Assembly: GCF_000142905.1 (NCBI RefSeq)
Contig: NW_013657645.1
Location: 186,001 to 250,000, forward strand
Direction of reading: 5' to 3'
DNA: 64,000 nucleotides
Origin: Thecamonas trahens ATCC 50062
Taxonomy: Eukaryota; Protista; Apusomonadida
A model generated the notes under the pieces. The model saw only the letters and a program-made list of their open reading frames with translations, did no database searches and was not told where the DNA came from. Made by a program: the position numbers and the translations under genes. Positions 7,884 through 48,033 of this stretch are shown one piece after another; the stretch's first letter is position 1; every line of letters begins with the position of its first letter.

Positions 7884-10800
7884 CTACGTGCCGCCACGGG
7901 GGCGAACCTTGGGCTCCGGTGGATCCCACGGCATGCGCCGACTCTTGGGCTTGGCGCTGCCTCCGCGCCCTCGCCCACGCCCGCGCCCTCGCCCTCGCCC
8001 TTGCCCTCGCCGGCGCCCGCGTCCACGCCCACGCCCGCGCCCGCGCCCGCGCGTGCCACTGCGCTTGCGATCACTGGCATCGTCTCGCACACGGCTTGCT
8101 CGATCGGCGTGATCAGAGTTATTGCGGCTCGGCGTCCGCCCTCGACCCGTCCGCCCCGAGTTGCTGCGGCTCGGCGTCTGCTGCCGTCCCGAGTTGCTCC
8201 GACTCGGAATCCGCGAGCTTGATGCTCGTGACAGATTGCTCGGCGAAGTCAGCGAGGCATTGCTCGGCGCTCGTGAGCTGCAGCTCGGGGGTGTTCGCGC
8301 CCGAGCTCCAACTGACGAGCGCGACTTGCTGCGCGTCGGATCCCGCGAGTAACATCTCGATGAGTATGACCGATCCTGCGACCGCGACCGATCCTGCGAC
8401 CGTGACCGGTCCCTCGACCGCGACCGATCCTGCGACCGTGACCGGTCCCTCGACCGCGACCGATCCCTCGACCAGGAACGAGACCGCGTCCACGAGCGTG
8501 ACCTCGACCGCTCTCTCGACTGTTCCCTCGACCACGAGCAATCTCGCGATTGACTCTGTGGTGAGCTCCCCAGTGCAGCCCCTCCGCGCGCAGGCGTCTC
8601 GGGCCTCGCAAGAGACGAGCCGTGCGAGTCACTCGAGCTCGACGTCGGTCCTCGTGCAGACGACAAGCTCTCCCACACCTCCTCCGCCGGCTCGTCTGCT
8701 GCGCCGGGCGTGTTCCCGTGCCGAAAGTCAAGCGACGAATTGGGCGACGGTGCGTGATGCAGCGCCGTCTCAAATACCGTCCGCAGCGGCACGTCGTCGT
8801 CATCGTCGGCGCCGCCCGCCATCACTTCTGGGAACGTCGAGCTCAGGCCATGCTCGTCAGTGTTGCAGCGCGCCTTGCCAAACGGCGTCGACGGTGCAGA
8901 CGCCATCAGCGACGCTGGCCGCCGCATCCAAGCCTTCGACCCCGGTGTGGCCGGCGCAGGCGTTGCATACAGTCGAGACGCCACCGACGAGAGCTCGTTC
9001 GATGACGATGAGTCGGCTGTCGATGGCTCAGCCCACCGGCCGCTCGCCTCTACGACGGTCACATCGGCTGCAGGCTTGGGCGTTGTCACCACCTCGGGCG
9101 CCACACGAGTGTTCTTACGCGCCACATGCGTGGCCACAAAGTATGCTACCAGGCCGAGCAAAACAAGCACAAGCAAGAGAAGAAGCCACACCACCCAAAA
9201 CAGCGCAGAGGACGGGTTCTGAAGCGGTGGCAAAGGCGCAGGTGCAACCAGGCTCCCAGGCCCACCCGCGCTCGACGGTGCAGGGAATGGAGGCGCGGGA
9301 GACAGCATCGGTGGAGGAGGCGGTGGTGAACTGTCTCCCATTGGAGCTGGTGGTGCCGGCGGTGATGGTGGTGGTGGCGGCGGTGACGGCGGTGGTGACG
9401 GCGGCGGCGGCGGTGACGGCGGTGACGGTGGCGGTGACGGCGACGGAGATGGCGGTGGCGGTGACGGCGGCGGCGGCGACGGCGGTGGTGGCGGTGGTGA
9501 TGGCGGTGGCGGTGGCGGCGATGGTGGCGGTGGAGGGCACAGATTGGCACCAGTGCATGTGCCAAACGCCGAGCACACGTCTGGGCCGGTACACGACGAC
9601 CCGTCGTCGCATGGCGTGTTGGCTGGATCGAGCTTGCACTCGGACGAGCAGCAGTCCCCGTTGGCTGTGTTCCCGTCATCGCACTCCTCGTCGGCATCGA
9701 CCACGCCGTTACCGCACACACATGTCAGCCCGCCGGACTGGACGCACTCGCCGCGGCTACCGCACACCGGCGCGCCGTAACACGGCTCTGCAAACGAGCA
9801 GTCGCTGCCTGCAGCCATGTACCCGTCGTCCGGGCAGACGACCGTGCCGCCGGCCCCCACCACGCACGCTTCAGCCACATCGCATGGTAGTGAGCCGTTG
9901 ACTGGCCGACAAAGTGTGCCTACATCGAGGTACTGACACGTCTCCGCCGAGCAGCATCCCCACGGCCCGGCTGAGCCCGGATCGCACTCTTCGCCCGGCT
10001 CAAGTGCGCCATTGCCGCACTCGGCGTACGCCAGCAAGACACTCACCGTGTCGGCGTCCGAGCTCGGTTGCGTCGTCTCGTAGCCGGAAAGCACCCCGAC
10101 GCCAGGCACCCTGCTCAGCACCAGGGCAAGATCGGTCGTCGCTGCCCCGGTTGCAGCGGCAGCCAACATCGGCTGCGCCGCGCCCCACGACGCACCGCAG
10201 TCAGTCGAAACCGCCACCATGATGTCCGAGTCGGTTCCGGTCCCGCCCACGTCCGCTGTTGACTGCCACGCCGCGAGAACATGCCCACCGCCAGGGTACT
10301 CGGGCATCCACACCAGACTCGGCGCCGCATCGAGCGCGCCACTGTCGTCCGCCGCAGCATAGCTGTTGACCAGCGCCGGCGCGTTCCAGGTCACCCCATT
10401 ATCATGCGAGACCGCCGCGAGCAGATCCAGGTCTGATCCGAGGCTCAGTGGCCCGAGCGCCGTCCGAGTCGACGCCCATGCCACCGTCCACGTGCCGTTG
10501 CCAGCCGTCGCCACCACGGGCTGAACGTCAAACGCCGCCGAGCCGCCCACCACCACGCCGGGCTGGCACTCGAGCCGCCCGGCATCGCCTCCGGGCACCC
10601 AGCATCGCGAGAAGAGGATGTCAAAGTCGGTCCCGTCCCATCCGGACCCATACCATGCCACGCCAAACGTAGCATTGGCCGCGCCAAACGCCACGTCTGG
10701 CCCATGGTTCGACGTCCCAGACGCTTCCATGCCCGGACTGGCGGCAATTGGCGCCGACCATCCTCCGCTGCTTGCGCCCAAGGCTGCCACAAACACGTTG

Positions 10801-11420
10801 CCAGCCGAAGCGTAGGCAACAAGCGTGGCATCAACCTCAGCGCCATGACACATCGCCGGCGTCAGTGCCGGCGGGGGACCTGGAGCCACCACCTGTGGTG
10901 ACGCCAGCGAGACAATGCCGCTGGCGTTGACCTGTGCTGTTGACGCCACAAGCAACGGGCCTTCCAGCCATGCCAGCGCCACAGACTCTGCGCCAGGGCC
11001 ACGAGCAACAACCGGGAACGCTGCCGAGACGCCCGACGGAGACGGCGGTGAGGCCAGCGGCAGCGCCATCGTCCGTCGCCAGCTCGGCCCAGCATCATCG
11101 CCGTAAGCCGGCTGGCGGCTGGTTGCGAGGTGGACTGCAGTAGTCGACGCCGACGAGGCATTGGCTAGCGAGTACGCCGACTTGAAGACAGCAACAACTG
11201 AGCCTCCCGCTTCTGTTAGAGCCATCTGTGTATCCGGCGCAGCGTCCGATGTGCCATAGTGCGGGATCATGCCCGGGACAGGAGGCAGAGGATGAAGGAG
11301 GCCATCGGCAATGCCGGTCGCATCCACCGCTAGCACCAGCCCAGATCCATCCATCACCACCAGAGCAATCGCAGCCATAACCATTGTCATCCGCATCACC
11401 TCCCCCACCATCTTGCTCAT
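7884..11420 (-). CDS. Type I membrane protein: signal peptide, BNR/Asp-box propeller, disintegrin-like and Myxococcus-type Cys-rich repeats, poly-Pro stalk, TM, RS/RG-repeat cytoplasmic tail
   Basis: Hydrophobic leader from ATG 11420; Asp-boxes SHDNGVTW and STDCGASW; CGNGALEPGEECD..CC..TC..CR..CD..E.C..CPDD; CGNGVVDADEECDDGN; TM LFWVVWLLLLLVLVLLGLVAYFV. Confidence 0.8.
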   Translation of the reverse strand: MSKMVGEVMRMTMVMAAIALVVMDGSGLVLAVDATGIADGLLHPLPPVPGMIPHYGTSDAAPDTQMALTEAGGSVVAVFKSAYSLANASSASTTAVHLATSRQPAYGDDAGPSWRRTMALPLASPPSPSGVSAAFPVVARGPGAESVALAWLEGPLLVASTAQVNASGIVSLASPQVVAPGPPPALTPAMCHGAEVDATLVAYASAGNVFVAALGASSGGWSAPIAASPGMEASGTSNHGPDVAFGAANATFGVAWYGSGWDGTDFDILFSRCWVPGGDAGRLECQPGVVVGGSAAFDVQPVVATAGNGTWTVAWASTRTALGPLSLGSDLDLLAAVSHDNGVTWNAPALVNSYAAADDSGALDAAPSLVWMPEYPGGGHVLAAWQSTADVGGTGTDSDIMVAVSTDCGASWGAAQPMLAAAATGAATTDLALVLSRVPGVGVLSGYETTQPSSDADTVSVLLAYAECGNGALEPGEECDPGSAGPWGCCSAETCQYLDVGTLCRPVNGSLPCDVAEACVVGAGGTVVCPDDGYMAAGSDCSFAEPCYGAPVCGSRGECVQSGGLTCVCGNGVVDADEECDDGNTANGDCCSSECKLDPANTPCDDGSSCTGPDVCSAFGTCTGANLCPPPPPSPPPPPPSPPPPPPSPPPPSPPPPSPSPSPPPSPPSPPPPPSPPPSPPPPPPSPPAPPAPMGDSSPPPPPPMLSPAPPFPAPSSAGGPGSLVAPAPLPPLQNPSSALFWVVWLLLLLVLVLLGLVAYFVATHVARKNTRVAPEVVTTPKPAADVTVVEASGRWAEPSTADSSSSNELSSVASRLYATPAPATPGSKAWMRRPASLMASAPSTPFGKARCNTDEHGLSSTFPEVMAGGADDDDDVPLRTVFETALHHAPSPNSSLDFRHGNTPGAADEPAEEVWESLSSARGPTSSSSDSHGSSLARPETPARGGAALGSSPQSQSRDCSWSREQSRERSRSRSWTRSRSWSRDRSRSRDRSRSQDRSRSRDRSRSQDRSRSQDRSYSSRCYSRDPTRSKSRSSVGARARTPPSCSSRAPSNASLTSPSNLSRASSSRIPSRSNSGRQQTPSRSNSGRTGRGRTPSRNNSDHADRASRVRDDASDRKRSGTRGRGRGRGRGRGRRRGQGRGRGRGRGRGRGGSAKPKSRRMPWDPPEPKVRPRGGT

Positions 11421-11739
11421 CGCCTGCCTCCTCCCTCCTCGCCTCCTCTCCTGCCTTGTCGAAGGACTGCTCCTGCTCCTTTTCCTCCTCTTCCGTCCCG
11501 CTCCCACCATGCCCACCCGGGCTTGCCTCGGCTGCATGGCGCGCGCGACGGTCGACCGTGTGCGTAAAGCCTGTCTGGTGAGTGGTGCAGGAGACGGGTG
11601 AGCCGTGCTGTATGCCCGGGGCTACCCTTCTTTACCGCACCATGGCTTCTTCCTCCTCGCCTCGCCCGCTCACTCTGTGGCACATCGCGCGCTTCCAGCG
11701 AGCTTCTGCCTCCTGGAGGGTTTGGGGGGGGGGGGGGGG

Positions 11740-11839
11740 NNNNNNNNNNNNNNNNNNNNNNNNNNNNNNNNNNNNNNNNNNNNNNNNNNNNNNNNNNNNN
11801 NNNNNNNNNNNNNNNNNNNNNNNNNNNNNNNNNNNNNNN
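11740..11839. other. Assembly gap (100 N)
   Basis: N run following a poly-G tract. Confidence 1.
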
Positions 11840-15840: not shown

Positions 15841-17688
15841 TCAATTCGCCAGCCCATTGTCGGGCGAGGCGTCGTCGGGCGAGGCGTCGTCGAGAGTGCC
15901 GCCATCGTCGAGGTCCTTGCCAGCTCCGTACTTGCGACGGAAGTAGGCCCTGATGCCGAAGCGGAGGGCAAAGAACATAATGATGAGGAAGATGGCAATA
16001 CCGACGAGGCCGAGGATGAGCGCCAGGGCGATGGAGCCCCCAGACGGCGGCGGCGGTGGCGGCGGAATGGGCGCAGCCGCAGGCGGCGGCGGAGGCGGCG
16101 GCGGTGGGAGGGCAAGGTACCCGCTGAGCTGACTCCACACATAGACCTTGTTGAGGCCTTTGGCGCCAATGGCCAGAACCTCGTTGTTGAGCTCGACGTC
16201 GAGACCAAACTCGTCCATGACCGACTGCTGGATAGCTGGATCGTAGCCATCGCCTGAGGCGTTAAAGGTGACGTCGAGGAAGCCCGAGCGGTGGTAGGAG
16301 AAGGCAAAGCTCGACTTGAAGACCTCGCGCTTGATCCAGATGTTGTCCGAGACGCCAACGTTGCGCGTGTAGAGGTAGGTCTGGCCCTTGCCGGTCTCGG
16401 CCTCGACGCCAAACGGCGCGCCGATGGCCATCATCTGCCCGTTGGGCGAGAGCGCCATGTCCTGCCCAAAGTACGAGCCGTCCGTCTTCCACGGCTGCAC
16501 ATACTCGTTGCAGTCTCCAAGGCCCGAGACGTCGTACAGCGCGGCGTTGCCCTCGGCAAAGGTCTGCACCACGCCGCCCGCGGCATCGTAGCGGAAGACC
16601 GTCGAGTCGTTGCGCGGCGCCGAGACGTACCACTCGCCCAAGGCGGCATCCATCATGATAGCCGAGCCATAGTTTTGCGACGCGAGCTTGGCTGTCGGCG
16701 CACGGAGCGGAGCAGCCTCGGTCCATCCCGAGCCAGCCGCGTACGTGTACCGCCGCACCAGAGTCGGCAGCAGCGGCGCGTACAGGTTGCCGACCGAGTC
16801 GCCGTTAGCCTGCACATAAGCCTCGTCGTACGACTTGATCACCACGGTGTTGCCGTCGGGAGAAACGCCAAATGGCTGGCCGGCGTGCGAGTGGAGGAGC
16901 GTCTCGTTGGTGAGTGAGAGCTCCGGCTCGAACGTCTGGATCTTAGCCGAGTACACGTACTCACCCACGCCAGAGTCGTAGTCCCACACGTGTATGCCAC
17001 GGTTGGTCGCGTTGGCGGTGTACGCATCCTTGCAGCTGTTATGCGTCGGTTCGCAGAACAGGTACATCGACATGGCAAAGATGCGCGAGCCGTCGGGAGT
17101 AACAGCGACCTGGAAGCCGAGGTGATCACGCGGCGCCGGATGCGGCAGACGCAGCACCTGGTCCGGCGCCGGCCCGTACTTGGACCCACTGGCATCAGCA
17201 TCATGCCGCGAGAAGACATAGACACAGCCTTCCGAGGTGGCGAAGACCGAGGTGCCCTCGCCGTCGCGATGGGCACCCACCACCAGCCGCGACGCGGTGG
17301 CCGTCATGGCGAGTGAGAAGCCGAATCCGTCCTTCTCCACCGCGCTCGTCGTCAAGTTGCCGATCATCTCCCAACCACCCGTTGCAGCATCCAGCTCGTA
17401 CACCCATGTCCGCCCAGGCATGGCCAGCGTCGCCGCCTCACCCACAGCGAGCACGTTGACATCAGCAGCCAGAGCGAGACCCTTGCCAAACATCCGCGTC
17501 GGGTTCCACTCGGGGAGAGCCCACGGCGAGTCCGGTTGCTCCAACACAGTCGAGGCATCACTTCGCACAGCCTCTCCACCGCTTGCCATGGCCAGCACCA
17601 CCGCAGTCACGGCGAGCAGCAGCAGACCAACAGAGCGAGACGAGGCCGACACACCGCCGGCCGCCCGTCCCCACGCCAGCTTCCGCAT
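15841..17688 (-). CDS. Membrane-anchored FG-GAP beta-propeller (integrin-alpha-head-like, no leg domains)
   Basis: Signal peptide; repeats FGKGLAL..LAVG, FGFSLAM..LVVGAH, LGFQVAV, YGSAIMM..VSAP, FGQDMAL..AIGAP, FGLDVEL..AIGAK; poly-Pro stalk; TM; tail RFGIRAYFRR then an acidic end. Confidence 0.8.
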   Translation of the reverse strand: MRKLAWGRAAGGVSASSRSVGLLLLAVTAVVLAMASGGEAVRSDASTVLEQPDSPWALPEWNPTRMFGKGLALAADVNVLAVGEAATLAMPGRTWVYELDAATGGWEMIGNLTTSAVEKDGFGFSLAMTATASRLVVGAHRDGEGTSVFATSEGCVYVFSRHDADASGSKYGPAPDQVLRLPHPAPRDHLGFQVAVTPDGSRIFAMSMYLFCEPTHNSCKDAYTANATNRGIHVWDYDSGVGEYVYSAKIQTFEPELSLTNETLLHSHAGQPFGVSPDGNTVVIKSYDEAYVQANGDSVGNLYAPLLPTLVRRYTYAAGSGWTEAAPLRAPTAKLASQNYGSAIMMDAALGEWYVSAPRNDSTVFRYDAAGGVVQTFAEGNAALYDVSGLGDCNEYVQPWKTDGSYFGQDMALSPNGQMMAIGAPFGVEAETGKGQTYLYTRNVGVSDNIWIKREVFKSSFAFSYHRSGFLDVTFNASGDGYDPAIQQSVMDEFGLDVELNNEVLAIGAKGLNKVYVWSQLSGYLALPPPPPPPPPAAAPIPPPPPPPSGGSIALALILGLVGIAIFLIIMFFALRFGIRAYFRRKYGAGKDLDDGGTLDDASPDDASPDNGLAN

Positions 17689-18373
17689 GTTGCCATTCCG
17701 GCAGGTACTCGGGACAACACACATCATCTTCCGTCCAAACACAACCGAGGTGTTGATAGTCGGGAGAGAAACGAATGCGTCTCCCGACCTTCCCCTCCTC
17801 TCCCGCCCCCGCCCCCGCCCCACCCCCGCTGCCCTTGCTCCCGTCAAAGACGACATTGATTCGTTGCCGACAAACTGGCTGCCACCAACAATCGATGCCA
17901 ATTGATGACAATACCTTCGGTGTATTATCATTGAGGAACGTTTTGCACGGTCCGGTGTGTGTGCCTCCACGTCAGCAATGGCAGCATGCCGTACGGGATG
18001 CGCTACAGGGGGATACGAGGGTGTACAAGTGCGGGAATGTCACGCAAGGGTATTGGCAAACACTCTGCTTGCTCTTTGACTGGTGGTATATACGTCATAC
18101 ATGGTGTAGCCTTCACTACGGGCATGGAAGCTTGCCCCCCCCCCTGTGCTATCAATATGCTCGCTCACGTTCATTAGTCATCGGGTCGGACTCAGCCGGA
18201 CAATCAAAACGTTGCCAAGACAGAGGGGGAGGGGGGGAGGGGGGAGGCCGGCGGGGGTAGCGGGGAAAGGGCGTGTGGAAGGCATTCGTGTCTCGTTAAC
18301 CTGGATAACTTCGGGTTAGTGACGACTTTCCCTGTGGTTGCTTTGCTCTGTGTTTCTGCGCGTGGCTGCTGTC

Positions 18374-19765
18374 ATGGGTGTGTTCAAGTCCTTGGCCTCG
18401 GTGACGGACGTGGTGGTGGTGGTGGTGGTGGTGAGCCTTGTGTTAGTGACTCTTGCCGGCGAAGCGGATGGACGGACGGTGCTGTTTTCGGCGGTGGTTC
18501 GCGACTTTTCTGTGGATCACACCGACTTTGAACGGTATGGAGGCGGCGGCGTGGACTGCGGAGCTGTGGAGGATGAGCTCGGCGAGGACCGCAAGCCGAT
18601 CATGTGGGGTGGGAAGACGGCGACGGGAAAGTTCCTCGACCGGCCGTGCCCGCAGGCCGGCACCGGACGGCCGCGCCGGGTCGAGTACTTTCAGAACTTC
18701 TTCCGCGACGTGCCGGGCGTCAACATCCGCATTCCCATCCAGCTCAAGTTTGAGGAGCAGCCGCCAGGCTCGGGCATCTTTGTCTTTGATCGTAACAAGG
18801 ACGCTACCGGCATCAACCAGTACTTTCCGGTCGATGGACTCGGCTGGGGCGCCGACGTGCGGCGGCTGGGTTTCTTTGGCAACGTTCGCAACTTTCTCTT
18901 CACCACCGAGATCCACGCCGAGTTTGTGTACCGCGGCGACAACGAGTTCTTTAACTTTGCCGGCGATGACGACGTCTGGGTCTTTGTCAACAACAAGCTG
19001 GTCGTCGACGTCGGTGGCCTGCATTCGCAAAGAACCGGTGCCGTCAACTTGACGAACATTGCCGGCAAGCTCGGTCTTGTGCCTGGCGAGCGGTACCCTG
19101 TGTTTGTGGGCATCGCCGAGCGCCACTCGACCCAGTCCAACTGCCGGATCGAGACGACGCTTGCGCCCATCAACCGGCGGCCGTCAACGCAGCCAGCGGC
19201 GTACTCGGTCAAGGTCGGTGAGAACGTGACGGTCGAGTTTGTGGCGTTTGACGAGGACGGCGACAACCTCGTGTACACCCATACCATTCCGGACGAGCTA
19301 GCGCTGCTGCTGGACATTGCGCCCGACTCGCAGACGGCGCGGTTCCACGCGCCAGACTCGCTCGACCTGTACCTGCCTGCCAACGAGACGTCGTACACGT
19401 TCTCGATGGAGTTCACCGTCTCTGACGGTGAGTACACGGCGTGTCCGTCGACAGTGACCATCACCGTCACGCGAACGCTGGTGGCCCCTAGCCCGCCGGC
19501 TGCGACGCCGGCGCCGACGGACAACACCACCACGGTTGTCATCATCTCGATTGTCGCCGTCCTTGCAGTCATCGGCATCATCGCCCTCATTGCGCTCATC
19601 TTCTACGTCCGCTCGCAGGCCGAAACCTGGAAGGCCGAGATCATGGCCGAGTTTGCGGATGACAACCTCTCGATGAACCCGCTGTACACGGGGGCAAACA
19701 CTGAGTTCTCGTCACCGCTCTACGACGATGGCGGTGGAGACTCGGTCCAGATGTCGCACTTTTGA
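18374..19765 (+). CDS. PA14/fibro-slime domain + Ig/cadherin-like domain + TM + integrin-beta-like NPxY tail
   Basis: RDF..H.DFE, FFRDVPGVN, YFPVDG, NFLFTTEIH..F.Y.G, F.GDDDVWVFVNNKLVVDVGGLH, AERH..SN; AFDEDGDNLVY...FTVSDG; TM; tail NPLY-TGANTEFS-SPLY. Confidence 0.88.
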   Translation: MGVFKSLASVTDVVVVVVVVSLVLVTLAGEADGRTVLFSAVVRDFSVDHTDFERYGGGGVDCGAVEDELGEDRKPIMWGGKTATGKFLDRPCPQAGTGRPRRVEYFQNFFRDVPGVNIRIPIQLKFEEQPPGSGIFVFDRNKDATGINQYFPVDGLGWGADVRRLGFFGNVRNFLFTTEIHAEFVYRGDNEFFNFAGDDDVWVFVNNKLVVDVGGLHSQRTGAVNLTNIAGKLGLVPGERYPVFVGIAERHSTQSNCRIETTLAPINRRPSTQPAAYSVKVGENVTVEFVAFDEDGDNLVYTHTIPDELALLLDIAPDSQTARFHAPDSLDLYLPANETSYTFSMEFTVSDGEYTACPSTVTITVTRTLVAPSPPAATPAPTDNTTTVVIISIVAVLAVIGIIALIALIFYVRSQAETWKAEIMAEFADDNLSMNPLYTGANTEFSSPLYDDGGGDSVQMSHF

Positions 19766-20086
19766 AGTCATTGTTACCTGTTGCATGCAGTGTAGCCTTG
19801 CCCACCTACCTGCCCCTGTTGCCGTCCATGTAGATCGACATGAACTCATCACCCAAGGTCTTCTCTCCGGCTCGACCAACCAAACTGCCCCCTCCCTCCA
19901 AGACAATTAGCCTCAAATCTGTCTGTCCTCTCCTCTGACATACTCTCCCCCGTCAACTCTGGTCTGATCACCCCGGCTCCCCTCCACCTCACCGTGCGTC
20001 GCTCCGTGCCAGCCAAAGCCCCCCCCTCCCCCTCCGAACCACCTCCGCCAACCACCACCACTTGACCCCCCCCCACCCCCCACCCC

Positions 20087-20169: not shown

Positions 20170-21375
20170 ATGGCATTCCGGTTGTGGAGTGCAGAAGAGG
20201 TCGGAGCATGGCTGGAGAGCCTTGGCTATGGCGAGTATGGTCAGGCGTTTGTGGAGAACGAGGTTGACGGCGAGGCTCTCGAGGGGCTAGACACAGAGAT
20301 GCTGAAGGAGATGGGTCTGGTCAAGGTTGGTCCGAGGGCAAAGGTGCTCCGTGCTGTGCGTGAGCTTGTGGCGGAGGCTGCAGAGGCTGCCGGTCAGCAA
20401 CAGACTGCTGCCGCTGCTAGGCTTGCCGGGGACAGACACGGCAGCCATGGAGGAGATGACGGTGAGGATGGGGTCGTCAGAGCCGCAGCGAGTGAGGATG
20501 TCGGCGGAAAGAAGAAGGGCAAGGCGAAGAAGGGCAAGGACAAGAGCAAGAGCAAGAGCAAGGGCAAGGGCAAGAGTGAGGCTGTCGACCAGAGTGCTGC
20601 GGCGGTGGCCATCGTCGAGGCCGCCAACGGGACGGCGTCGGCCATCTCGAAGCAGGGCTGGCTGACCAAGGAGGGCGGCAAGCGAAAGAACTGGAAGCAG
20701 CGGTGGTTCACCCTCGAAAACATGGTGCTCTCGTACTACAAGGCCGAAGCCGACGTCGGCGTCAAGAACCCTCTGGGACGGATCCCGATTCCGTCGTACG
20801 AGGTCGATCTCGACAACAAGAAGCCATTTGGCTTCAAGATCTCGCACCCCGGATGCCGGACATACTACTTTGGGGCCGAGTCTGAAGCCGAGCGGCAGCT
20901 GTGGATGAAGGCCATCCGTGAGCAGGGTCTGGCCACGGCGTCCAAGACCTGGTTCAACGCCGAGGCCAACTTCTTTTCGGTCGAATACGCGCCGTCACTG
21001 GATCTTTTCGAAGTTGCCATGACAATGGATGCGCCCGAAGAGTCGGTGCGCCTGGTGCCGGGCAAGACGTACCGGTACCATGCCAAGCTGCGGCGGTCGG
21101 ACGGGTACTCGGAGGTGCTACTCGACGCCACCAAGACCGGCATTGTGGTCCGCGACGTGACCGCCACCGACAAGCTCTCGACCCACCACTACACAGCACT
21201 CCAGCGCTACACCATTGCCGCCCACGATCCGGTCTTCTCCATTCTCGAGGTTAAGGCCGGCCTCAAGTCTGTTTTCTCCTTCCACATGGGCAACTTTGCC
21301 ATTGCCCGCCACCTCAACTCGGTCGTCACCGCCCACATCGGCGAGCTTGTCGGCGTCATCCGCTCCATGCGATGA
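20170..21375 (+). CDS. SAM + PH + C-terminal PTB/FERM-F3-like adaptor protein
   Basis: SAM: WSAEEVGAWLESLGYGEYGQAFVENEVDGEAL. PH: KQGWLTKEGGKRKNWKQRWF..YYK...WMKAI. C-terminal LLDATKTGIVVRD...TALQRY...helix, resembling talin F3. Confidence 0.85.
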   Translation: MAFRLWSAEEVGAWLESLGYGEYGQAFVENEVDGEALEGLDTEMLKEMGLVKVGPRAKVLRAVRELVAEAAEAAGQQQTAAAARLAGDRHGSHGGDDGEDGVVRAAASEDVGGKKKGKAKKGKDKSKSKSKGKGKSEAVDQSAAAVAIVEAANGTASAISKQGWLTKEGGKRKNWKQRWFTLENMVLSYYKAEADVGVKNPLGRIPIPSYEVDLDNKKPFGFKISHPGCRTYYFGAESEAERQLWMKAIREQGLATASKTWFNAEANFFSVEYAPSLDLFEVAMTMDAPEESVRLVPGKTYRYHAKLRRSDGYSEVLLDATKTGIVVRDVTATDKLSTHHYTALQRYTIAAHDPVFSILEVKAGLKSVFSFHMGNFAIARHLNSVVTAHIGELVGVIRSMR

Positions 21376-21709: not shown

Positions 21710-23028
21710 ATGGCATCGGAGGCGGCATCGAGCGCAAGTGTGACAGATGCAGTGGCGGTAGCCTCTCCTGACTCTCTGCTTGGACTTGATGAGTGTGAGG
21801 TTGTGGACGACGAGACATGGGTATGTGTAGGGACAGGGGGGAGGGAAGGGAAGGGGGGGGGGAGGGGAGGTGGCGGGGATGGAGGGAGGAGGGGGACAGT
21901 NNNNNNNNNNNNNNNNNNNNNNNNNNNNNNNNNNNNNNNNNNNNNNNNNNNNNNNNNNNNNNNNNNNNNNNNNNNNNNNNNNNNNNNNNNNNNNNNNNNN
22001 TCTGTCCCGCGCGTTCCTTGGCACGTGTAGGCCCAGATTGGGGGGAAGGATACCATTTTGAGCGGATTGCCGGGATGAGGAGAGGGGGACACGGTGACAT
22101 GGTCAGTGGAGGGGCGGGGGGGATGGGGAGGGGGGAGGGGGGAGGGAAGGGAAATTGATGGGACAGGAAAGGGGGAGGGGGGGGGGGAGGGGGGAGGGGG
22201 GAAGAGGGTTGCACTGGTGGGGGGAGGCCGGAGGGAAGGGGAGGTGTCGGGGGCATGGCTCGCTGGAGCGCGACTCATTGGCGGCCGTGACGATGGTTGA
22301 CGATGGATGCGATGGATATGATGGTGGGTGTGATGGATGCGGTGGTGGATGTGGGGTTGGTGGGCGGAGAACGGGTGCAGGCCACTGTCCTGCCGCACAT
22401 CCACGTGCTGAGGTCGACGAACCAGATCAAGGGCATGTTCACCATCATCCGTAACCGAGAGACGGTCCGGTCGGACTTTGTCTTTACCTGCGACCGGCTG
22501 ACCCGGCTGGTAGTCGAGTTTGCGCTGTCGTTGCTTCCGTATGAATCCAAGACAGTGATCACGCCGACCGGCGACGAGTTTGTCGGCCTCTCGTGGGCGT
22601 CGTCGATCTGCGGCGTGGCGGTCATCCGGTCCGGCGAGTCGATGGAAGACGCTCTGCGGTCGGTCTGCGGGCCGGTTCGCATTGGCAAGATCCTGATCCA
22701 GAAGAACACCGAGGAGAACTCGCGCGACCTGATCTACGCGCGGCTCCCGGAGGACGTCTCGTCGCGCAAGGTCCTGCTCATGGATCCGGTTGCCTCATCG
22801 GGCCGCACCATCATCCGCGCCATGAAGGTTCTTCTCAAGTCGGGCGTGCCTGAGGAGAACGTCATCCTGGTTACTCTCGTTGCCTCGCGCCGCGCCGTCT
22901 GCTCCATCCTCGCCGCCTTCCCGGGCCTCACCATCTGTGTCGGCGAGGTCGATGAGGCCGTCAAGGGTGACTACGTCGTTCCTGGTCTCGGCACCTTTGG
23001 CGACCGCTACTACGGCACGGACATATGA
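21710..23028 (+). CDS. UPRT: Uracil phosphoribosyltransferase family; join(21710..21820, 22381..23028)
   Basis: TIIR...DFVF..DRL.RLVVE, ICGV.VIRSGESME, RIGKILIQ, LLMDP..SSG, YVVPGLGTFGDRYYGT. GTATGT...GCAG intron in phase 0 spans the gap. Confidence 0.9.
21901..22000. other. Assembly gap (100 N) inside the UPRT intron
   Basis: N run in a G-rich intron. Confidence 1.
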
Positions 23029-34871: not shown

Positions 34872-37800
34872 TTACACCAGTGCACGACCAATGTGATCAA
34901 CAACATCGACGACTCGAACAGAACCGTCTGATGCCCCGATCCAAAGCATATGGTCGTCGGGAGTCGGGGCCTGGACCACAACAGTAGGGACTATATGGTC
35001 ACCAACATCGAGAAGAGTGCAAAGGAGTCGCCCGGTCTTGGTATCCCACGCTCGAACAGTGCCGTCGGTCGAGGCTGTGACTACTGTGGCGGTGGCGGTG
35101 AGGGCGACGATAGCGGTGAGGGCGGCAGCGTGTGCATCGATGAGCAGTCGGACCCGCGGCGTGTGGCCGAGCAGATCCCAGACATGTACGATGCCGCGGA
35201 GAGGAGCGGCATCGGTGCCCTGGCTCGCAGCGACGGCGGCTGGGGTTGGCATCGGCGTTGCCGGCGAGAGCGCAGGATGAAGGTGCCACGGGGTATCCAG
35301 AGGTGTGGCAGACCACGGTGAGTGTCTCGCATGAGCTGCCGATGCAGTCTCTGAGAACGCTTTCTCGGGTGAGTAGGCGTACGAGAGCGACGACTCGTCG
35401 AGCACTCCGCCGCGCTCCGCCAGAAGTTCATCATGCAACAGCTGGTTGAGAACAGAGACGCCAACTGCAACGCTAATAGCGCCACCGGCTTGATCAAGCA
35501 GCGGGGCAGCCGGAAACGCGTCAGGGCTTGGTTGGGCATACACCACCCAGTTGACGCACCAGTCTTCAAACAGCAGATCAACAATAGGGCCAGCCAGCGT
35601 CGCCTCGGACCACGCCACGCGGAGCCCGACGAGGCGGCCGAGCCGAGGAAGCCAAACAAGGACCAAGTGCACGTTGGCTTCCCACGGCGCGAGCGGAACA
35701 GATCGAATCCGTCCGTTGAGTGCTCCTGAAGGCGTCGGGATGGGATACACAAGCTCTGCTGTCGACGAATCGAGGGGGCACCGCCATCCCGCCAGCGTAC
35801 CATCACCAGCAAGGGCGTAGACCACACCGTCAGGTCCGGGACAAACATCGACCACCGCACCGGCCGAGTCGGGAAGCCAGAGGCCACGTACAAGAGCCAG
35901 TGACGAGAGCGACCAGACCTTGACCGAGTCCTCGCTGACGCCAAACGAGATTGCAGCCTCGGTGTCAGACTGCAAGGCGAGGAGGTGAAAGGCGGCGACG
36001 CCATGTGGATGGGCATCCTCGATGACAAACAGTGGGTTACGTGGATGGAGAAGGATGTGCCGTCCTGACAGTTCCGGGTTACCCTGCGAGCTGGCGAGAA
36101 CAACAGGCGTAGAAGCGCGCGACGTGGTACCCGGGAGCGAGAGTGACGAGAGCGAGACGAGAGCAACCATGTTGCGGACCCGCGGAGCGCCGATGCGAAG
36201 CGAGTGCAGTTGCGATGCCGACTCTGCGTCCAACCGGTTGCCCAACGTCGGCGCAAGGTGCCAGACCATGACTGAGCCGTCGGCTGCCAGCGTCGCAACC
36301 ACTCGACTGGCGCCGCATGTAAGCGAGACAATACCGCTGACAAGGGTGAGGTGCTTGGTGGGAAGGGCGGGCGCTGGATCACCAACCTGAGCAGGAAGAT
36401 GGATCGCAAGCGAGTCGACAGTGATGGCGTCGTGGTCGACGAGCGCAGCGGCGACGAGCGCGTGGGTGCCGGCAGCGGCAGCGGCAGCGGCATCCTCAAG
36501 CAGCGCAAGCGCGTCTGAAGCTGAGATCCGATGCTGCGGATCGACCGCCAGCGCCGAGAGAACTAGCGTTCGTAGCGGCGTTGGCCACCATGTTTGGTGC
36601 CGCGGACGCAACCAGCGATTCTCTGGATCACGCCATGACACCAGCGGCAAGCCTGCCAGCACTTCATGGGCGAGGAGGCCAAATGCGTACATGTCAGCAG
36701 CCGCAGTCCGCGCGAGACCTTCAGGAGGCGCATAAGCTTGCGGCTCCACGAGTGTTGCCCACTTGTCACGTCCGACCCGGGATTCGAGCGCGGCCGCCAG
36801 ATCGAGTTCGAGCTCGAGACTTGTTTCTGGCCCCGAGAACTCAGCAGCCGCTTCGGGCGTTGTAGCCGTGACAAGACCTGCATGGACGTGAGTAAGATGG
36901 GCAGCGACGGTCTCGGGGCTTGAAATAAGCGCTGGTGGAACGACCAGGCGGAAGATCCAGCCGTCGCCACGGGGGGATGCCCAGACCATCGACGGGCAGA
37001 TGGCGCCATGGACGGCTCCAAGAGCATGCACTGTCTTGAGCGCAGATGCTAGGTCATGCAGCGCAGCGATGCGAGCAGAGAGGGTGGAGAGTGCACCGCT
37101 CGCCATTGACAGTGCAAGCGGCCGGTCGTCGGGCATGTGGTCGTACCAGACCCAGGCAAGTGAGCGCGGCTGATGCGGAAGCAAGTGAGCAAGGCCAACA
37201 CCCATGTCGGGTGATTCTGCCACGTGTGAGACGGCGACGAGCGGAACAATGTGTGGCGATGCCAGCGAAATGATGTCGGCCAAAGGGTGGAGTTGAGTCG
37301 AGTCCGACTGCGGTGGTAGGTCGAGGCCGGCAACCAGAAAGCCCTTGGCGTGGAGGGTGGTGGCGAGTCTGACGGCTGCAAACGGAATTGAGGCGAGCGA
37401 GCGGGCGAGCGGAAGTGTGGTCGGTGCAGCCATGTCAGCATCTGTGACGAGAAGCGGAACCAAAATGCGGGTAAGCGTCTGCTGGAGCACATCAGGTTGT
37501 GACGAGGCAAGAAGAGCCGGATCAAACGGAGGGAAACGATCCGGATACATGGGTGGAACCGCGATAGCCTGCGTAGGTGAGAGCCGCTCCGCAGCGCCGA
37601 GCGAGGCGAGAAAGGCAAGCGGGAGAGTGGACCAGGCAACGCCAAGGCCCTGATGACCAACAGCTAGGACATGGCTACTTCCGAGAAGGTAGAGCGAGGT
37701 GAGTGGCGCCGGGAGTGCGGGGAAGGCGTAGATCTGAGTTCCAGACTCAGGCTGCCACACCCGCAGCGTACCGTCGGCGCCAGCTGAGAAGACAAGGCCA

Positions 37801-40367
37801 GACTGAGTGAGGGTAAGTGCGTGGACAGGGCCGATGACATGGGCTGGGCTGCTGCCAAACCAGTGGTTGCGGATCGCGCGTGTCGGCCAATCCCATGCAA
37901 CAAGCGAACCATCGTCTGCGCCAGCAAGGACAATGCCCGCGTCTGGCACAAAGATCAAGGAGCGCAGGCCGATCGGGGTTTCTGTCACTAGCGCCGCGTC
38001 TTCGGTGAGAACATCAACGGAAGCAGTGTGGCCATCAGCCTCGATCTTGCATACAATGTGAACCGGTGTGACAGTGCCGACCGACGACGCGACCAGCAGA
38101 GTAAAGGTGTCTTCGAGGTCGGGGATGGCAGCAAGGTGCAGTGCAGTGACGATAGCGGGTGGGGCGACCGGTTCCGGAACGAGGCCAACAAGGATGCGCG
38201 AGTCGAGGTGGAAGACCAAGAGCGGCTCAAACGGAAGGCGGCGGTGAACGACAAGAAAACCGCCACAAGTTTGGAGAAGGGCGTTGGACGATAGCTCTGG
38301 AAGATGTGGCGAGGAGAGGGCGCGCCACCGCGAGGCACGGGTGAGCAGCGTGGCGGCATCGGCGTCGGAGGTAGTAACGAGAACGAGAACGCCATTAGAA
38401 TACCCGAGTACAAGGGTGCTTGTGGCGGCGGAAAAGGTCATGCCTACGGCATGGACGCGTGCATTGGCGGCAGTGCCAAAGTCGATGACCGAGCGCGGTG
38501 GATTAGGGCGTGATGCGAGAAGCTCACCCGAGCTTGGATGAAGGGCGAGGAGCGCGCCGTCGTCGAGCGCCACAAGAAGGACGGTCCCTGCGTCGAGGAG
38601 ATGCATGGCTGTGGGGGATGCGGTCAGCGGATACTGCCACGACGAGCGTAGTCTACTGGCAGTGGCGGCGAGTGAGAGGGCAATGACGGCCGGCGACGAT
38701 GACGAGGCGAGAAAAACGCGGCTGCCTGCAACGCAGATGGCGGCGAGTGAGCCAAAGGCTGGCAGCGAAAGCGGAGGCAGAATGCGGTAGAGCGCGTCCG
38801 GGTCACTGATGTCGGGCCGCCAAGCGAGGAGCCGTGTTGCGGATGGCGTGTCCGCATGAGAAATGGCGTCGAGGAGGGCAGCGGGCGAGCCCGCGGCGGC
38901 GTGGCGGATGAGGGCGAGGTAGCCTAGGATGCGGGCGGGAGAAGCGCGACGAGACGGAACGAGCTGAAGGCACTCGTCAATGAGCGAGCAGACAAGGGCC
39001 GGCCAATGATCAGCGAGCGGCGGACGCTCGTTCCAGGCCTTGGTCCTGTCAAGTGAAGTGGGAAAGGGCGGCTCGCCGGCCCAGAGGGCCCAGACAAGGA
39101 GGCCAAAGGAGAAGACGTCTGCCGCCGGGGTCAGCGGAAGCTTGCGCTGAAAGGCTTCAGGCGCAGCGTAGGCGTATGCCGGCAGGATGACGCTGTTGAG
39201 GCCCGGGGCGAGGTGCAGAACAGCGACCGAGGTGCGATCCAGCGAAGCGTAGAGTGCTTCGAAGCAAAGCGCGCCGTGAACAATGCCCAGTGAGTTGAGG
39301 TAGTGCAGTGCAGCGGCGGCGGCGGTAAGGGTGGTGAGGATGGCGTCGAGCGAATCGGCAAGGGCGAGGGCTGGCAGCGAGAGCGGGGCCGATCCGTGAA
39401 GGAGAAAGGCCCACTGGGCGGCTGAGTTTGCAGCGAGGCCTTGAAAGGGAAGAAGTGAAGGTGATGCAAGACGATGGCGGATCTGGGCTTGGGCCTCGAG
39501 CTGGGCAGGGCTGACCGCACCCGACAACATCAGGGGGTCAAGTGAAAAGGTGGCGACGGCACGGTTGTTGAGGTTAGACGTGTGCAGCTCGCCCTTACTC
39601 GCCGTGGCAGACGAGCGTAGTCCGAGGCGCGAGGCAAAGGCCACCAAGGCGCGGGCGCGGGTGGACGGCAAGATGTAGGCGCTTAGCGAGTCGGATAAGG
39701 AGGGTGACGAGGGCGCAGACGATGCCGACGACGATGGGTGGGGAGTCGGGCCCGATGCGAGGAGCTCGTAGCGGTCAACAGAGTCGAGAGGCACGTGAAT
39801 GCCTGCGGGTGCTTCGTGGCTGTATAGAGTGGCTGAAGGTGTGTCGTGGACAAAGAGCGGGAGGTCGAGCTGAGCGGCGAGGTCTGCGACAGCCTGAGCG
39901 GCAAGCGGGCGCAGCGAATCTGGGCAGCGGAGAGGGGCGATGCCGACGTGTGTGAGATCTGGCGAGTCCGGAAGGGTGCTGACCCAAGCAACATCGCCGA
40001 TGATGGGCGCGCGAGATTGTGCAGGCGAGGAAGGGCGGCAGAGGGTGACGAGCTCGCCGATGTCGAGCGGGCGTGCCGCGAGGGCGGCGGGAGCGTGGGG
40101 TGCGGCGGGCGGACAGACAGCGGCGGGGCGCACAAAGACGACGCGGGCGGTGCGCGAGTGAGGGAAGAAGAACCGCTCGCCGCCGAGGGTACCTGGCGGC
40201 TCGTCCGCGCGCGGGAAGATGCAGTCAGCAGTGGAGGGCGGTGGGGCTGAGGCGGTGAGCTCGAGGCCGAGCCAGGTGCCGCGGAGCGAAGGGAGCGAGC
40301 CGACGTAGCGGATGGTCCCGCGGGTCTTGGCAAGCCAGACGGTGGTGCCGAGAGCAAGCTGCTCCAT
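34872..40367 (-). CDS. CAP-Gly + pseudokinase + WD40 + pseudokinase + WD40 protein
   Basis: GTIRYVG.....GTWLGLEL...GTLGGERFF (CAP-Gly); LHYLNSLGIVHGAL..YAAPE..ADVFSFG and VHALGAVHGAI..YAPPE..ADMYAFG; WD motifs AGADDGSLVAWD, SAGADGTLRVW, TASTDGTVRAWD. Confidence 0.8.
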   Translation of the reverse strand: MEQLALGTTVWLAKTRGTIRYVGSLPSLRGTWLGLELTASAPPPSTADCIFPRADEPPGTLGGERFFFPHSRTARVVFVRPAAVCPPAAPHAPAALAARPLDIGELVTLCRPSSPAQSRAPIIGDVAWVSTLPDSPDLTHVGIAPLRCPDSLRPLAAQAVADLAAQLDLPLFVHDTPSATLYSHEAPAGIHVPLDSVDRYELLASGPTPHPSSSASSAPSSPSLSDSLSAYILPSTRARALVAFASRLGLRSSATASKGELHTSNLNNRAVATFSLDPLMLSGAVSPAQLEAQAQIRHRLASPSLLPFQGLAANSAAQWAFLLHGSAPLSLPALALADSLDAILTTLTAAAAALHYLNSLGIVHGALCFEALYASLDRTSVAVLHLAPGLNSVILPAYAYAAPEAFQRKLPLTPAADVFSFGLLVWALWAGEPPFPTSLDRTKAWNERPPLADHWPALVCSLIDECLQLVPSRRASPARILGYLALIRHAAAGSPAALLDAISHADTPSATRLLAWRPDISDPDALYRILPPLSLPAFGSLAAICVAGSRVFLASSSSPAVIALSLAATASRLRSSWQYPLTASPTAMHLLDAGTVLLVALDDGALLALHPSSGELLASRPNPPRSVIDFGTAANARVHAVGMTFSAATSTLVLGYSNGVLVLVTTSDADAATLLTRASRWRALSSPHLPELSSNALLQTCGGFLVVHRRLPFEPLLVFHLDSRILVGLVPEPVAPPAIVTALHLAAIPDLEDTFTLLVASSVGTVTPVHIVCKIEADGHTASVDVLTEDAALVTETPIGLRSLIFVPDAGIVLAGADDGSLVAWDWPTRAIRNHWFGSSPAHVIGPVHALTLTQSGLVFSAGADGTLRVWQPESGTQIYAFPALPAPLTSLYLLGSSHVLAVGHQGLGVAWSTLPLAFLASLGAAERLSPTQAIAVPPMYPDRFPPFDPALLASSQPDVLQQTLTRILVPLLVTDADMAAPTTLPLARSLASIPFAAVRLATTLHAKGFLVAGLDLPPQSDSTQLHPLADIISLASPHIVPLVAVSHVAESPDMGVGLAHLLPHQPRSLAWVWYDHMPDDRPLALSMASGALSTLSARIAALHDLASALKTVHALGAVHGAICPSMVWASPRGDGWIFRLVVPPALISSPETVAAHLTHVHAGLVTATTPEAAAEFSGPETSLELELDLAAALESRVGRDKWATLVEPQAYAPPEGLARTAAADMYAFGLLAHEVLAGLPLVSWRDPENRWLRPRHQTWWPTPLRTLVLSALAVDPQHRISASDALALLEDAAAAAAAGTHALVAAALVDHDAITVDSLAIHLPAQVGDPAPALPTKHLTLVSGIVSLTCGASRVVATLAADGSVMVWHLAPTLGNRLDAESASQLHSLRIGAPRVRNMVALVSLSSLSLPGTTSRASTPVVLASSQGNPELSGRHILLHPRNPLFVIEDAHPHGVAAFHLLALQSDTEAAISFGVSEDSVKVWSLSSLALVRGLWLPDSAGAVVDVCPGPDGVVYALAGDGTLAGWRCPLDSSTAELVYPIPTPSGALNGRIRSVPLAPWEANVHLVLVWLPRLGRLVGLRVAWSEATLAGPIVDLLFEDWCVNWVVYAQPSPDAFPAAPLLDQAGGAISVAVGVSVLNQLLHDELLAERGGVLDESSLSYAYSPEKAFSETASAAHARHSPWSATPLDTPWHLHPALSPATPMPTPAAVAASQGTDAAPLRGIVHVWDLLGHTPRVRLLIDAHAAALTAIVALTATATVVTASTDGTVRAWDTKTGRLLCTLLDVGDHIVPTVVVQAPTPDDHMLWIGASDGSVRVVDVVDHIGRALV

Positions 40368-40541
40368 GCCGCGTATGTGTGTGTGTGTGTGTGTGAAAGT
40401 CTTAAAGTCTTTGGTCTTTGACAGTGAGATGGGGCACCGAGCGAGGCGGCCGTCGAGTTCCCGAGTTGACTCGAGCGGCACGGAACGGTAGGTAGGGGTG
40501 GGGGTGTGTGTCAGGGATCGGAACGAGCAAAGGGAAGTGGC

Positions 40542-42745: not shown

Positions 42746-42817
42746 CCACATGTCAGAGGTGGCAAGTAAAACCTCGGGCCGGCACACTTGTCGGCGCAGG
42801 CGGCGGAGGCGACGCGC

Positions 42818-45800
42818 ATGGAAGGTACCGTAGGAGGCGACGACGACGCGCGCTGCACGCCCGCAGGTGGAGACGCCGCACGTCCCACCGAGGAGCTCCT
42901 GGCGATCATGCGCACGCTGGCGGCAGCCGTCGTTCGTATGGCGGGCCACCCCGTCGACGCTGTCGAGCGCGCACTCGGCACACTCGCCCATGCAAGGGGC
43001 GAAGCATTTGTGGCAAGCCTTTGTGAGCCACTGGCGGCTCTTGTTGCTGAGTTAGCCGCACCCGAGGCGTCTGGGAGCGGGGACAACAACTGCCGCCATG
43101 CGGTTTTTGGCGAAAGCGGCGAATGCGGCGAAAGCACCGCTGCCACGGGTGATAGCAGCAACGATGACGGCGAGTTGAGCTTCCATGATCCGCTGGCGGC
43201 GCTCCTTGCCGAGCTTGGGGACGACGAGGAAGAAGGTGACCGCGGGGCGGTTACGGCTGACGAGGCTGGGGCTGTGGTTGAGGCCGAGGCCGGGGCTGAG
43301 GTTGATGAGGTGGAGGTGGAGGTGGAGGTCGAGGCCGAGGCTGGGGCTGAGGCGGATGCAGGTGAGACTGGAGCCGAGACCGAGGCTGAAGTGGAGGCCG
43401 AGGTGGAGGTGGAGGTCGAGGCCGAGGCCGAGGCTGGGGCTGAGGCGGATGCAGGTGAGACTGGAGCCGAGACCGAGGCTGGGGCTGAGGCTGATGCAGG
43501 TGAGACTGAAGGCGAGGCCAAGGCTGAAATGGAGGCCGAGGCCGGAGCTGATGTTGATAAGGTCGAGGTGGAGGTCGAGGCCGAGGTCGAGGCTGGGGCC
43601 GAGGCTGATGCGGTTGAGACTGGAGCCGAGACCGAGGCTGAAATGGTAGCCGAGGCCGGGGCTGAAGTGGAGGCCGAGGTCGAGGTTGAGGCCGAGGCTG
43701 GGGCCGAGGCTGATGCGGTTGAGACTGGAGTCGAGACCGAGGCTGGGGCTGAGGCCGATGCAGGTGAGACTGAAGGCGAGGCCAAGGCTGAAATGGAGGC
43801 CGAGGCCGGAGCTGATGTTGATAAGGTCGAGGTCGAGGTCGAGGCCGAGGCCGAGGCTGGGGCCGAGACTGATGCGGTTGAGACTGGAGCCGAGACCGAG
43901 GCTGAAGTGGAGGCCGAGGTGGAGGTGGAGGTGGAGGTCGAGGCCGAGGCCGAGGCTGGGGCTGAGGCGGATGCAGGTGAGACTGAAGGCGAGGCCGAGG
44001 CTGAAATGGAGGCCGAGGCCGGAGCTGATGTTGATAAGGTCGAGGTCGAGGCCGAGGCTGGAGCCGAGGTTGATGAGGTCGAGGCCGAGGTCGAGGTTCA
44101 GGCCGAGGCTGGAGCCGAGGCTGATGCGGTTGAGACTGGAGCCGAGGCCGAGGCTAAAGTGGAGACCGAGTTTGTCGTTGAAGATCAGGCTGAGACTCAG
44201 GCCAAGACTGAGATCAGAGTGGAAGCTGTGGGGCCACCTGCTGATGGCGAGTCGGTCAACCACGAGGCCGAGAGCGGCGCTGGGGATGCGAGTGCTTCTG
44301 CTGCCCTTGCAGCCGGCGTGGTGGCTACCGGCACAGCAGTGGGTCTCGCTGTAGCCGCAACCAGCCAAGTTGAGCCTCACTACGACGGTGAAGTGTGTGA
44401 TGCGGCCGACGGAGGGGAGACCGAGGGCGAGACCGAGGGCGAGACCGAGGGCGAGACCGAGGAAATGAGGTATCGCCCAGCTTCGCCGTGGACTGAGTCG
44501 ATCCTATCGGACTACTCTGATGATCTCGAGCTGGAAGTTGTGGAGGTCGAGCAGCACGGCAACGATGTGGCGCGATCATACACGACGCTCATGGAGATCG
44601 ACGACGCCTTGAACGCCAGGCTTGACACCGAAGACGACATTGATCCTGCCACGCTCATCTCTGAGTGCAGCGGCGTCCACTCATCCGACGACTCTGACTC
44701 GGCCGACCTCGAAGTTTTTGCCACGTTTGCGCTCGAGGATGAGATCGGCGTCCTGCCGTTGGAGCAGCACCGCCGCCGATCGTCAGGCCTGAGCGACTCG
44801 CTAGCTGACGCTGCCAAAGCTGTTGCGTCCGCAGCTGTTGATCCTGTTTCGGATGAAACAGTTGCCGTCGACAACAACGACAACAACACAGGCCAGGCGC
44901 CAAAGACTGCCGCCGAGAAGAGGGAGGTCGTTGAGGATGCCTCGGCTGATGGTGGCTCTAGCCCTGGTGCTGACGCGCCGTCCAGCAACGAACTGGAGCT
45001 CAAGTCTGGCTACATGTCGAAGCGCGGTGGCAAGTTCTCCACCAAGTGGCAGAAGCGCTGGTTCTCGCTCACCGCCGAAGAGTTGATGTACTCGGAAGCA
45101 CCCGACAAGCCGCTCAAGGGCTCGATTGCTATTTCGCGGATCAACCTCGTTACCCAGGTCCACTCACCCAAGCAGGTCAAGGAGCGCCAGCACTGCTTCT
45201 CGGTTGCCGTGCCCGGCAAGACGTACTACATTGACGCCGGCTCCGAGAGTGAGCTCGTGGCCTGGCTCCAGGCTCTCTACCCGCTGCTGGGGCCCACCAT
45301 TGTCGTCGCCGACTGTGTCGGCGACAGCGACGATGCATCGCCACAGGCCTTGCTCCCGGACTCGCCAGGCAAGGACAGCAGCGCTCCTGCCACCCGTCGC
45401 CGCCCGGACAGCCTCGACGACACCACGGTACTCATGTCTGGGTATCTTGTTAAGCGATCGGCGAGCGGTGGGAAGCTGCAGTCGCGGTTTATGACGCTCA
45501 CGCCCAGATTCCTTCGCTATGCGGTCAAGGAGGGCAAGCCAATCAAGTCGGCACTTGCCACCGCCGTCATGATCTGCACGAGGCGTAATGCTGCGGCCGA
45601 AAAGCCGCCGTATGGCTTCAAGATCGCCACCGCAGCGCATGTCGTCTCGCTTTATGCGCCTGACGAGGACACGCTGATCAAGTGGCTCATGGCGCTCGAG
45701 CGTGCCATCGGCGTTCCGGCACCGCCGAGCGATCCGCTTGAGTGCTACACCATCTGGCGCAAGGCCTTTGAGTGCGAGAACCTCGCAACCATGTGCGCAT

Positions 45801-47775: not shown

Positions 47776-48033
47776 TCTGTGAAACTCCCTCGCCGCCCTA
47801 GCGCACTACATACAAGTAGGCATCTTAATAGCACCTCGTGATCATTGCTGCATTTTACACTTTATGCTTGCTGCATTTGATGGTCTACCAAAAGTCTACC
47901 CATGGAGATATAGGTGATCGCGCCGTCTCGCGAGCTTGGGTGGGAGGGCATGTCGGACTCGTTTGGCAGACATCCGTGCGAGCAACTCCTGTCCTCTTCC
48001 TTCTCACACATCTCTCTCTCTCTCCTCTGCCAA

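Follow-up and report, generated by a model that had tools for sequence, protein, structure and literature searches.

A Fibro-Slime/PA14 Receptor with an Integrin-Beta-like Double-NPxY Tail in Thecamonas trahens

RESULTS

The Receptor Gene

An intronless gene for a receptor of 463 residues is located at positions 18374–19765 (+) of the window, by which we mean the whole stretch of 64,000 nucleotides from Thecamonas trahens ATCC 50062 (contig NW_013657645.1) that was analyzed. The predicted product is a type I membrane protein that consists, in order, of a signal peptide, a fibro-slime/PA14 domain, an immunoglobulin (Ig)-like domain, a proline-rich linker, a transmembrane (TM) helix, and a tail of 51 residues that carries two NPxY-type motifs. 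The hydrophobic core of the likely signal peptide covers residues 13–27 (18410–18454 (+); hydropathy 3.46). The Pro/Thr-rich linker (19472–19534 (+)) is present in all seven members of the receptor family described below, and the single TM helix comprises residues 388–412 (19535–19609 (+); hydropathy 3.38). There are only 4 cysteines in the entire protein.

The open reading frame (ORF) is crossed by a single RNA contig without gaps in two of four metatranscriptome runs (18295–19811 and 18302–19812) and is covered piecewise by RNA contigs in the other two. Because one gap-free contig crosses the ORF, the reading frame and the absence of introns hold; an artefact or a wrong frame was ruled out by the RNA contigs together with the homologs. 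Frame +1 of the interval 19400–19900 encodes the TM helix, SQAETWKAEIMAEF, seven further residues, and then NPLY-TGANTEFS-SPLY, with the stop codon at 19763–19765. This arrangement had been proposed in an earlier note made from the nucleotide sequence alone, and it is present as described.

The Ectodomain

The fibro-slime/PA14 core spans residues 172–263 (18887–19162 (+)) and exceeds the cutoffs of both families, with 102.6 bits for fibro-slime TIGR02148 (cutoff of 45) and 29.6 bits for PA14 PF07691 (cutoff of 24). It contains a GDDD motif, a candidate calcium/sugar site, that is retained in all six family members that cover the core. Residues 270–366 (19181–19471 (+)) form a putative Ig/cadherin-like stalk domain, which is matched by Big_9 at an E-value of 7e-4, under the cutoff, and is kept in the family. 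A Pfam scan at E ≤ 1 returned PA14 and Ig-like domains only, with no vWA, PSI, or EGF-stalk domain, and a PDB sequence search with the receptor matched no PA14 structure. The ectodomain is explained by the fibro-slime and Ig domains, and it has no integrin component.

Tail Geometry and the Receptor Family

The tail begins with a membrane-proximal segment of 22 residues (19610–19675 (+)) that is predicted to be helical and aligns without gaps to integrin beta3; its alignment in the Atlas model search falls under the bar for naming a match. The membrane-proximal motif, NPLY, starts at residue 435 (19676–19687 (+)), and the membrane-distal motif, SPLY, starts at residue 447 (19712–19723 (+)). No other double NPxY motif occurs in the six frames of the window. 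The pattern NPx[YF]-x8-[NS]xx[YF], which was chosen post hoc, arises in 22 of 200,000 shuffles of the 51-residue tail.

Among the 120 homologue matches listed, out of 226, two proteins other than the receptor itself span the C-terminal half, and both have kept the tail. A TM-tail profile constructed from the receptor and these two homologues was run against 1.84 billion proteins. The 14 matches include three training or self sequences, four new family members (three with PA14 and one fragment with an Ig domain), and the mite integrin beta P0141 (E = 1.6e-4). The family alignment consists of seven members with 38–55% identity; P0146, a cluster-mate of P0135, was left out. In all seven members, the Asn of the first motif is positioned 22 residues past the first charged residue after the TM helix, N-P-L of the proximal motif is invariant, eight residues separate the proximal motif from a distal motif of the form [NS]xx[YF], and both motifs end in Tyr or Phe. 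The distal Asn is found in six of the seven, the exception being the present receptor. Conserved within the proximal segment are an R-S pair, Trp or Tyr at position –16 relative to the first Asn, acidic residues at –13 and –5, and Leu at –3. An aromatic or aliphatic residue precedes the distal motif at its –2 position in six of the seven members.

The earlier note had read the protein as a non-integrin fibro-slime receptor equipped with a tail of the integrin-beta type and had named, in advance, loss of the motif spacing in relatives as a finding against it. The spacing is kept in 7/7, and integrin beta is the best match in Pfam, the PDB, the protein library, and the Atlas structure search. 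The likeness to the beta1 tail that it had drawn is borne out for the eight-residue spacing; Thr or Ser between the motifs is another matter, as three of the seven members have neither. The double motif itself is intact at the proximal NPLY and degenerate at the distal site.

Also among the 14 matches are two fragments from other sources, P0140 and P0143; they do not belong to the family but share its geometry, with the TM +22 position and NPx[YF]-x8-NPx[YF].

A homologue search with residues 262–463 returned, from 1478 candidates, only the receptor itself and one bacterial Ig protein; this search was insensitive, because the known family member P0005 was missed. A tree of the fibro-slime domain was made by a quick method from 89 rows (86, minus 3 that were too short, plus 6 domain rows). 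The six family members of sufficient length are on one side of a branch with a Shimodaira–Hasegawa-like approximate likelihood ratio test (SH-aLRT) value of 99, and their end branches range from 0.45 to 1.16. Since the family branch is supported and the tail geometry is constant, the fibro-slime domain and the tail appear to have been kept together across a deep divergence.

Similarity of the Tail to Integrin Beta

The best Pfam match of the receptor tail, though under the cutoff, is Integrin_b_cyt, which scores 16.0 bits on family member P0136. Against the 177,635 sequences of the PDB, the three-sequence tail profile places beta3 first (E = 1.9e-4) and gives E = 0.064 for beta1, and the receptor tail aligns without gaps to beta3 from the end of the TM helix through the last Tyr. 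In the Atlas structure search, the top four rows are integrin beta clusters, every one of them under the naming bar. The Atlas feature search with the receptor returned no integrin, and all of its matches were below 0.9. The matches to integrin beta in Pfam, the PDB, the 1.84 billion proteins, and the Atlas structures all reflect a single signal and do not count as independent of one another.

The alpha-interacting motif of integrin beta, LLxxxHDRKE, is not reproduced. R-S replaces H-D in the receptor family, and the Ser is invariant in 7/7. According to bioRxiv 2020.04.29.069435, this motif is also missing from amoebozoan and breviate integrins. Membership of the receptor among the integrin betas was rejected on the grounds that there is no vWA domain with a metal ion-dependent adhesion site (MIDAS), no PSI domain, and no Cys-rich EGF stalk, and that the Pfam tail score is below the cutoff. 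Membership among the Sib proteins, which are adhesion receptors of Dictyostelium, was rejected as well; there is no vWA match, and the TM helix has one Gly and no GxxxG. Judged from its sequence, the receptor would act at most through an integrin-beta-like tail and belongs to neither the integrins nor the Sib proteins, because the ectodomain is non-integrin and the clasp Asp, the Trp before the first motif, and a conserved Thr/Ser linker are missing.

The Head-to-Head Neighbor

The gene at 15841–17688 (–) encodes a protein of 615 residues with a signal peptide, a predicted seven-bladed FG-GAP_2 propeller, a Pro linker, a TM helix, the juxtamembrane sequence AYFRR (15934–15948 (–)), which resembles GFFKR, and a short acidic tail. 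The divergent intergenic region (17689–18373; 686 bp from start codon to start codon) is likely a shared promoter region, where RNA contigs on the neighbor side stop at 17756–17787 and those on the receptor side start at 18295–18327. RNA contigs span most of the neighbor in three of the four runs. PF14312 (FG-GAP_2) scores 41.1 bits, above the cutoff of 23. The propeller ends near residue 525 and is followed by the Pro linker and, from residue 552, by the TM helix, with no Ig-like thigh or calf legs.

An AlphaFold2 (AF2) model from three sequences has a predicted local distance difference test (pLDDT) score of 60.9, compared with 39.8 for the single-sequence model. The best match to the model among seven-bladed propellers has Z = 27.6 and a root-mean-square deviation of 2.7 over 287 aligned residues. 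The structure matches listed are generic seven-bladed propellers, and integrin alpha is not among them. Only two homologues of the neighbor were found (52–53% identity). All three proteins have SxxxAxxxG within the TM helix, then AY[FY][RK]R, then an acidic tail. The extended juxtamembrane form is I[RK]AY[FY][RK]R in 3/3, which is reminiscent of the motif KXGFFXR after the TM helix of integrin alpha (bioRxiv 2020.04.29.069435). Linked receptor and neighbor loci were not found in metagenome, prokaryote-genome, and viral collections, which does not refute the linkage. Of the relatives, P0124 lies on a contig of 8.1 kb and P0148 on one of 4.3 kb.

Other Genes in the Window

The window, which comes from a flagellated eukaryote, is gene-dense and intron-poor, and its Pfam matches include PP4R3, citrate synthase, and CFAP65-like Ig genes. 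Directly downstream of the receptor, at 20170–21375 (+), lies the gene for a SAM-PH protein with a weak C-terminal match to an IRS-type phosphotyrosine-binding (PTB) domain (E = 0.034). The C-terminal part of this protein matched no PTB domain in the PDB at E ≤ 10, and the RNA coverage is slight. The interval 47914–58959 (+) encodes one or more very large surface proteins that are rich in beta structure, mostly without Pfam matches, and that have EGF-like repeats and a TM helix at the C terminus; its overlapping long ORFs 47914–48939, 48935–53542, and 53401–58959 are likely either a single gene split by introns or paralogues in tandem. A TM protein with a BNR-like region, a Cys-rich DUF4215-like module, a Pro stalk, and a long tail rich in Ser and Arg is encoded at 7884–11621 (–). 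An ORF of 1889 residues at 34872–40541 (–) has weak CAP-Gly, kinase-like, and WD40 regions, and at 42770–47206 (+) four PH domains follow a long Glu/Ala/Val-rich repeat. Three 100-base assembly gaps (11740–11839, 21901–22000, and 59488–59587) leave the receptor and its neighbor untouched.

DISCUSSION

On balance, and by analogy with known receptors, we favor a function in which the receptor likely captures glycans on prey or on the substrate and is coupled to actin via talin at NPLY. The fibro-slime/PA14 domain would bind the glycans of the prey or substrate, possibly with calcium through GDDD. Fibro-slime proteins of Fibrobacter are involved in attachment to cellulose (PMC4668043), and the calcium site of PA14 lectins consists of two Asp residues (PMC6852018); it is by analogy that we infer calcium-dependent sugar binding via GDDD in the receptor. 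Talin F3, or another FERM/PTB domain, would then dock on the proximal NPLY as it does in SibA and the Capsaspora integrins, and the bound object would be linked through talin to the actin skeleton. The proximal NPXY of SibA binds talin (PMC9197732, PMC4325847), force is borne by the SibA-talin connection (PMC12686525), and human talin is recruited by the tails of Capsaspora integrins in an NPXF-dependent manner (PMC6450878). The proximal NPLY is most simply taken as a likely talin-type FERM site, because it is invariant at a fixed distance from the membrane and because of the analogy with SibA and Capsaspora. Since the clasp Asp is missing, the receptor would be a mechanical anchor and not an integrin activated from the inside out.

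The distal motif may serve a sorting or recycling adaptor instead of kindlin. Kindlin is reported in PMC4325847 to be missing outside animals, and the distal motif would therefore require a different reader. An argument for kindlin from Thr or Ser between the motifs was discarded, given that these residues are not conserved (none in 3/7) and that kindlin is reported missing outside animals.

Several observations weigh against a talin-coupled, integrin-beta-like tail. The Integrin_b_cyt profile, which the earlier note had put forward as a check, gives 14.5 bits on the receptor, under its cutoff of 23.4. The match to beta3 weakens to E = 0.018 with a full-length profile of the seven members, and 4 of the 14 TM-tail profile matches lack the double motif and are apparently spurious. 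The second motif of the receptor has Ser instead of Asn, and P0146, outside the seven-member set, carries Thr instead of the first Asn. A Trp located four to five residues before the first NPxY is found in 0/7 members, which have Asp or Glu at –5 and Leu or Ala at –3, and the Trp preceding NPxY is described as critical for talin (PMC12637224). The mite integrin beta P0141 is likewise without a Trp before NPxY. Finally, many PTB and FERM proteins read NPxY (PMC11772769, PMC11339278, PMC9197732).

The missing talin-contact Trp would also fit an endocytic or recycling lectin, in which both motifs are sorting signals for FERM/PTB adaptors of the SNX17 type and there is no force-bearing link to actin. 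SNX17 binds both motifs of beta1 (PMC11772769), five of the seven members match the sorting consensus hydrophobic-x-Nxx[YF] (PMC11339278) at the distal motif, and the gene downstream of the receptor has the weak IRS-type PTB match (E = 0.034). However, a sorting signal needs neither a fixed 22-residue distance from the membrane nor an eight-residue spacing, and both are invariant here and match beta3. The proximal motif is the better conserved of the two and its –2 position varies, and the receptor's own distal motif, with Ser for Asn, is outside the consensus. We therefore regard a purely sorting role as rather unlikely. The same invariance bears on whether the resemblance to integrin beta is convergence or chance, with the tail binding some other partner or none. 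The Pfam score below the cutoff, the shortness of the motifs, and Atlas feature matches that are below 0.9 and not to integrins would fit such an explanation. It is nevertheless highly improbable in view of the ungapped register with beta3 and the conservation of the geometry in 7/7 members, and because of that invariance a functionless tail is excluded.

Compatible with anchoring through talin, but quite doubtful, is a proposal that involves the neighboring gene. The receptor would be the beta-like half of a legless, mini integrin-like heterodimer, with the fibro-slime domain in the place of beta-I and the FG-GAP protein as its partner. The seven-bladed FG-GAP propeller, the SxxxAxxxG TM helix, AY[FY][RK]R, and the acidic tail are shared by 3/3 proteins, a motif of the AY[FY][RK]R type (chosen post hoc) is found in 57–131 of 100,000 shuffles, RNA contigs for both genes occur in the same three of four runs, and alpha-like proteins whose stalks are Pro-rich have been described from Amoebozoa (bioRxiv 2020.04.29.069435). 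Against this, the Atlas clusters closest to the neighbor consist of generic FG-GAP_2 proteins from bacteria, diatoms, green algae, and giant viruses, the integrin cation-binding consensus is found in 0/3 propellers, and the neighbor has no Ig legs. Its TM-tail profile matches no integrin alpha in Pfam or in the PDB (E ≤ 10), AYFRR lacks the Lys of KxGFFxR, and the beta-like tail has an invariant Ser at the position of the beta3 clasp Asp. If the neighbor were the partner, the alpha/beta design would be more modular than thought, and the pair would be a second, modular receptor of the integrin type, one able to read sugars and to exert pull via talin.

Whether talin was there first for integrins or for a wider set of receptors is posed as an open question in PMC12686525. 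A small, old family that combines a bacterial-type adhesion domain with the full geometry of an integrin beta tail is a compact test case for this question, and it supports the double-NPxY tail as a portable module. The idea of an integrin-like tail on a non-integrin receptor has already been published, for SibA, the Entamoeba lectin, and the Acanthamoeba mannose-binding protein. A fibro-slime family with a double-NPxY tail was not found in the literature searched, which covered neither subscription papers nor the supplementary files of the bioRxiv survey of integrins. Fibro-slime papers, judged by their titles, are bacterial or microbiome studies, and in the apusomonad and integrin literature searched, PA14 is mentioned in bioRxiv 2020.04.29.069435 solely for an ORF carried by the scaffold of an amoebozoan integrin.

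Relative to integrin beta (PF08725; TM-tail of beta3, 2knc_B), the receptor shares the register, NPLY-x8-NxxY, and a Gly at the equivalent position of the TM helix. It differs in having no vWA, PSI, or EGF domains, no Asp of the HDR clasp, and no Trp before NPxY, and its TM helix is two residues shorter than that of beta3 and without the buried Lys. The neighbor resembles the Type II (non-canonical) integrin alpha of Amoebozoa in its FG-GAP propeller, Pro-rich stalk, and TM helix, but its propeller is of the FG-GAP_2 type without a cation motif, and its juxtamembrane motif only approximates GFFKR.

SibA–E of Dictyostelium are also non-integrin type I receptors with two NPXY motifs, the proximal one talin-binding. 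The Sib proteins, which bioRxiv 2020.04.29.069435 reports from dictyostelids only, carry a vWA domain, and their TM helix is rich in glycine, in contrast to the fibro-slime and Ig domains and the one TM Gly of the receptor. The Entamoeba Gal/GalNAc lectin and the Acanthamoeba mannose-binding protein combine a lectin ectodomain with an integrin-like tail for which talin has been proposed (PMC12686525). No match of the receptor ectodomain to these lectins was seen, talin binding is at the stage of a proposal there, and the passage compared does not contain the double-motif geometry. The fibro-slime/PA14 proteins share with the receptor a domain that exceeds both family cutoffs and retains GDDD and the near-invariant residues. 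Among the matches listed, however, the bacterial proteins align only to the N-terminal half of the receptor, and those of Fibrobacter are extracellular or in the outer membrane (PMC4668043). Among the 150 proteins collected for the analysis, the double motif is confined to the receptor family, one integrin, and two fragments.
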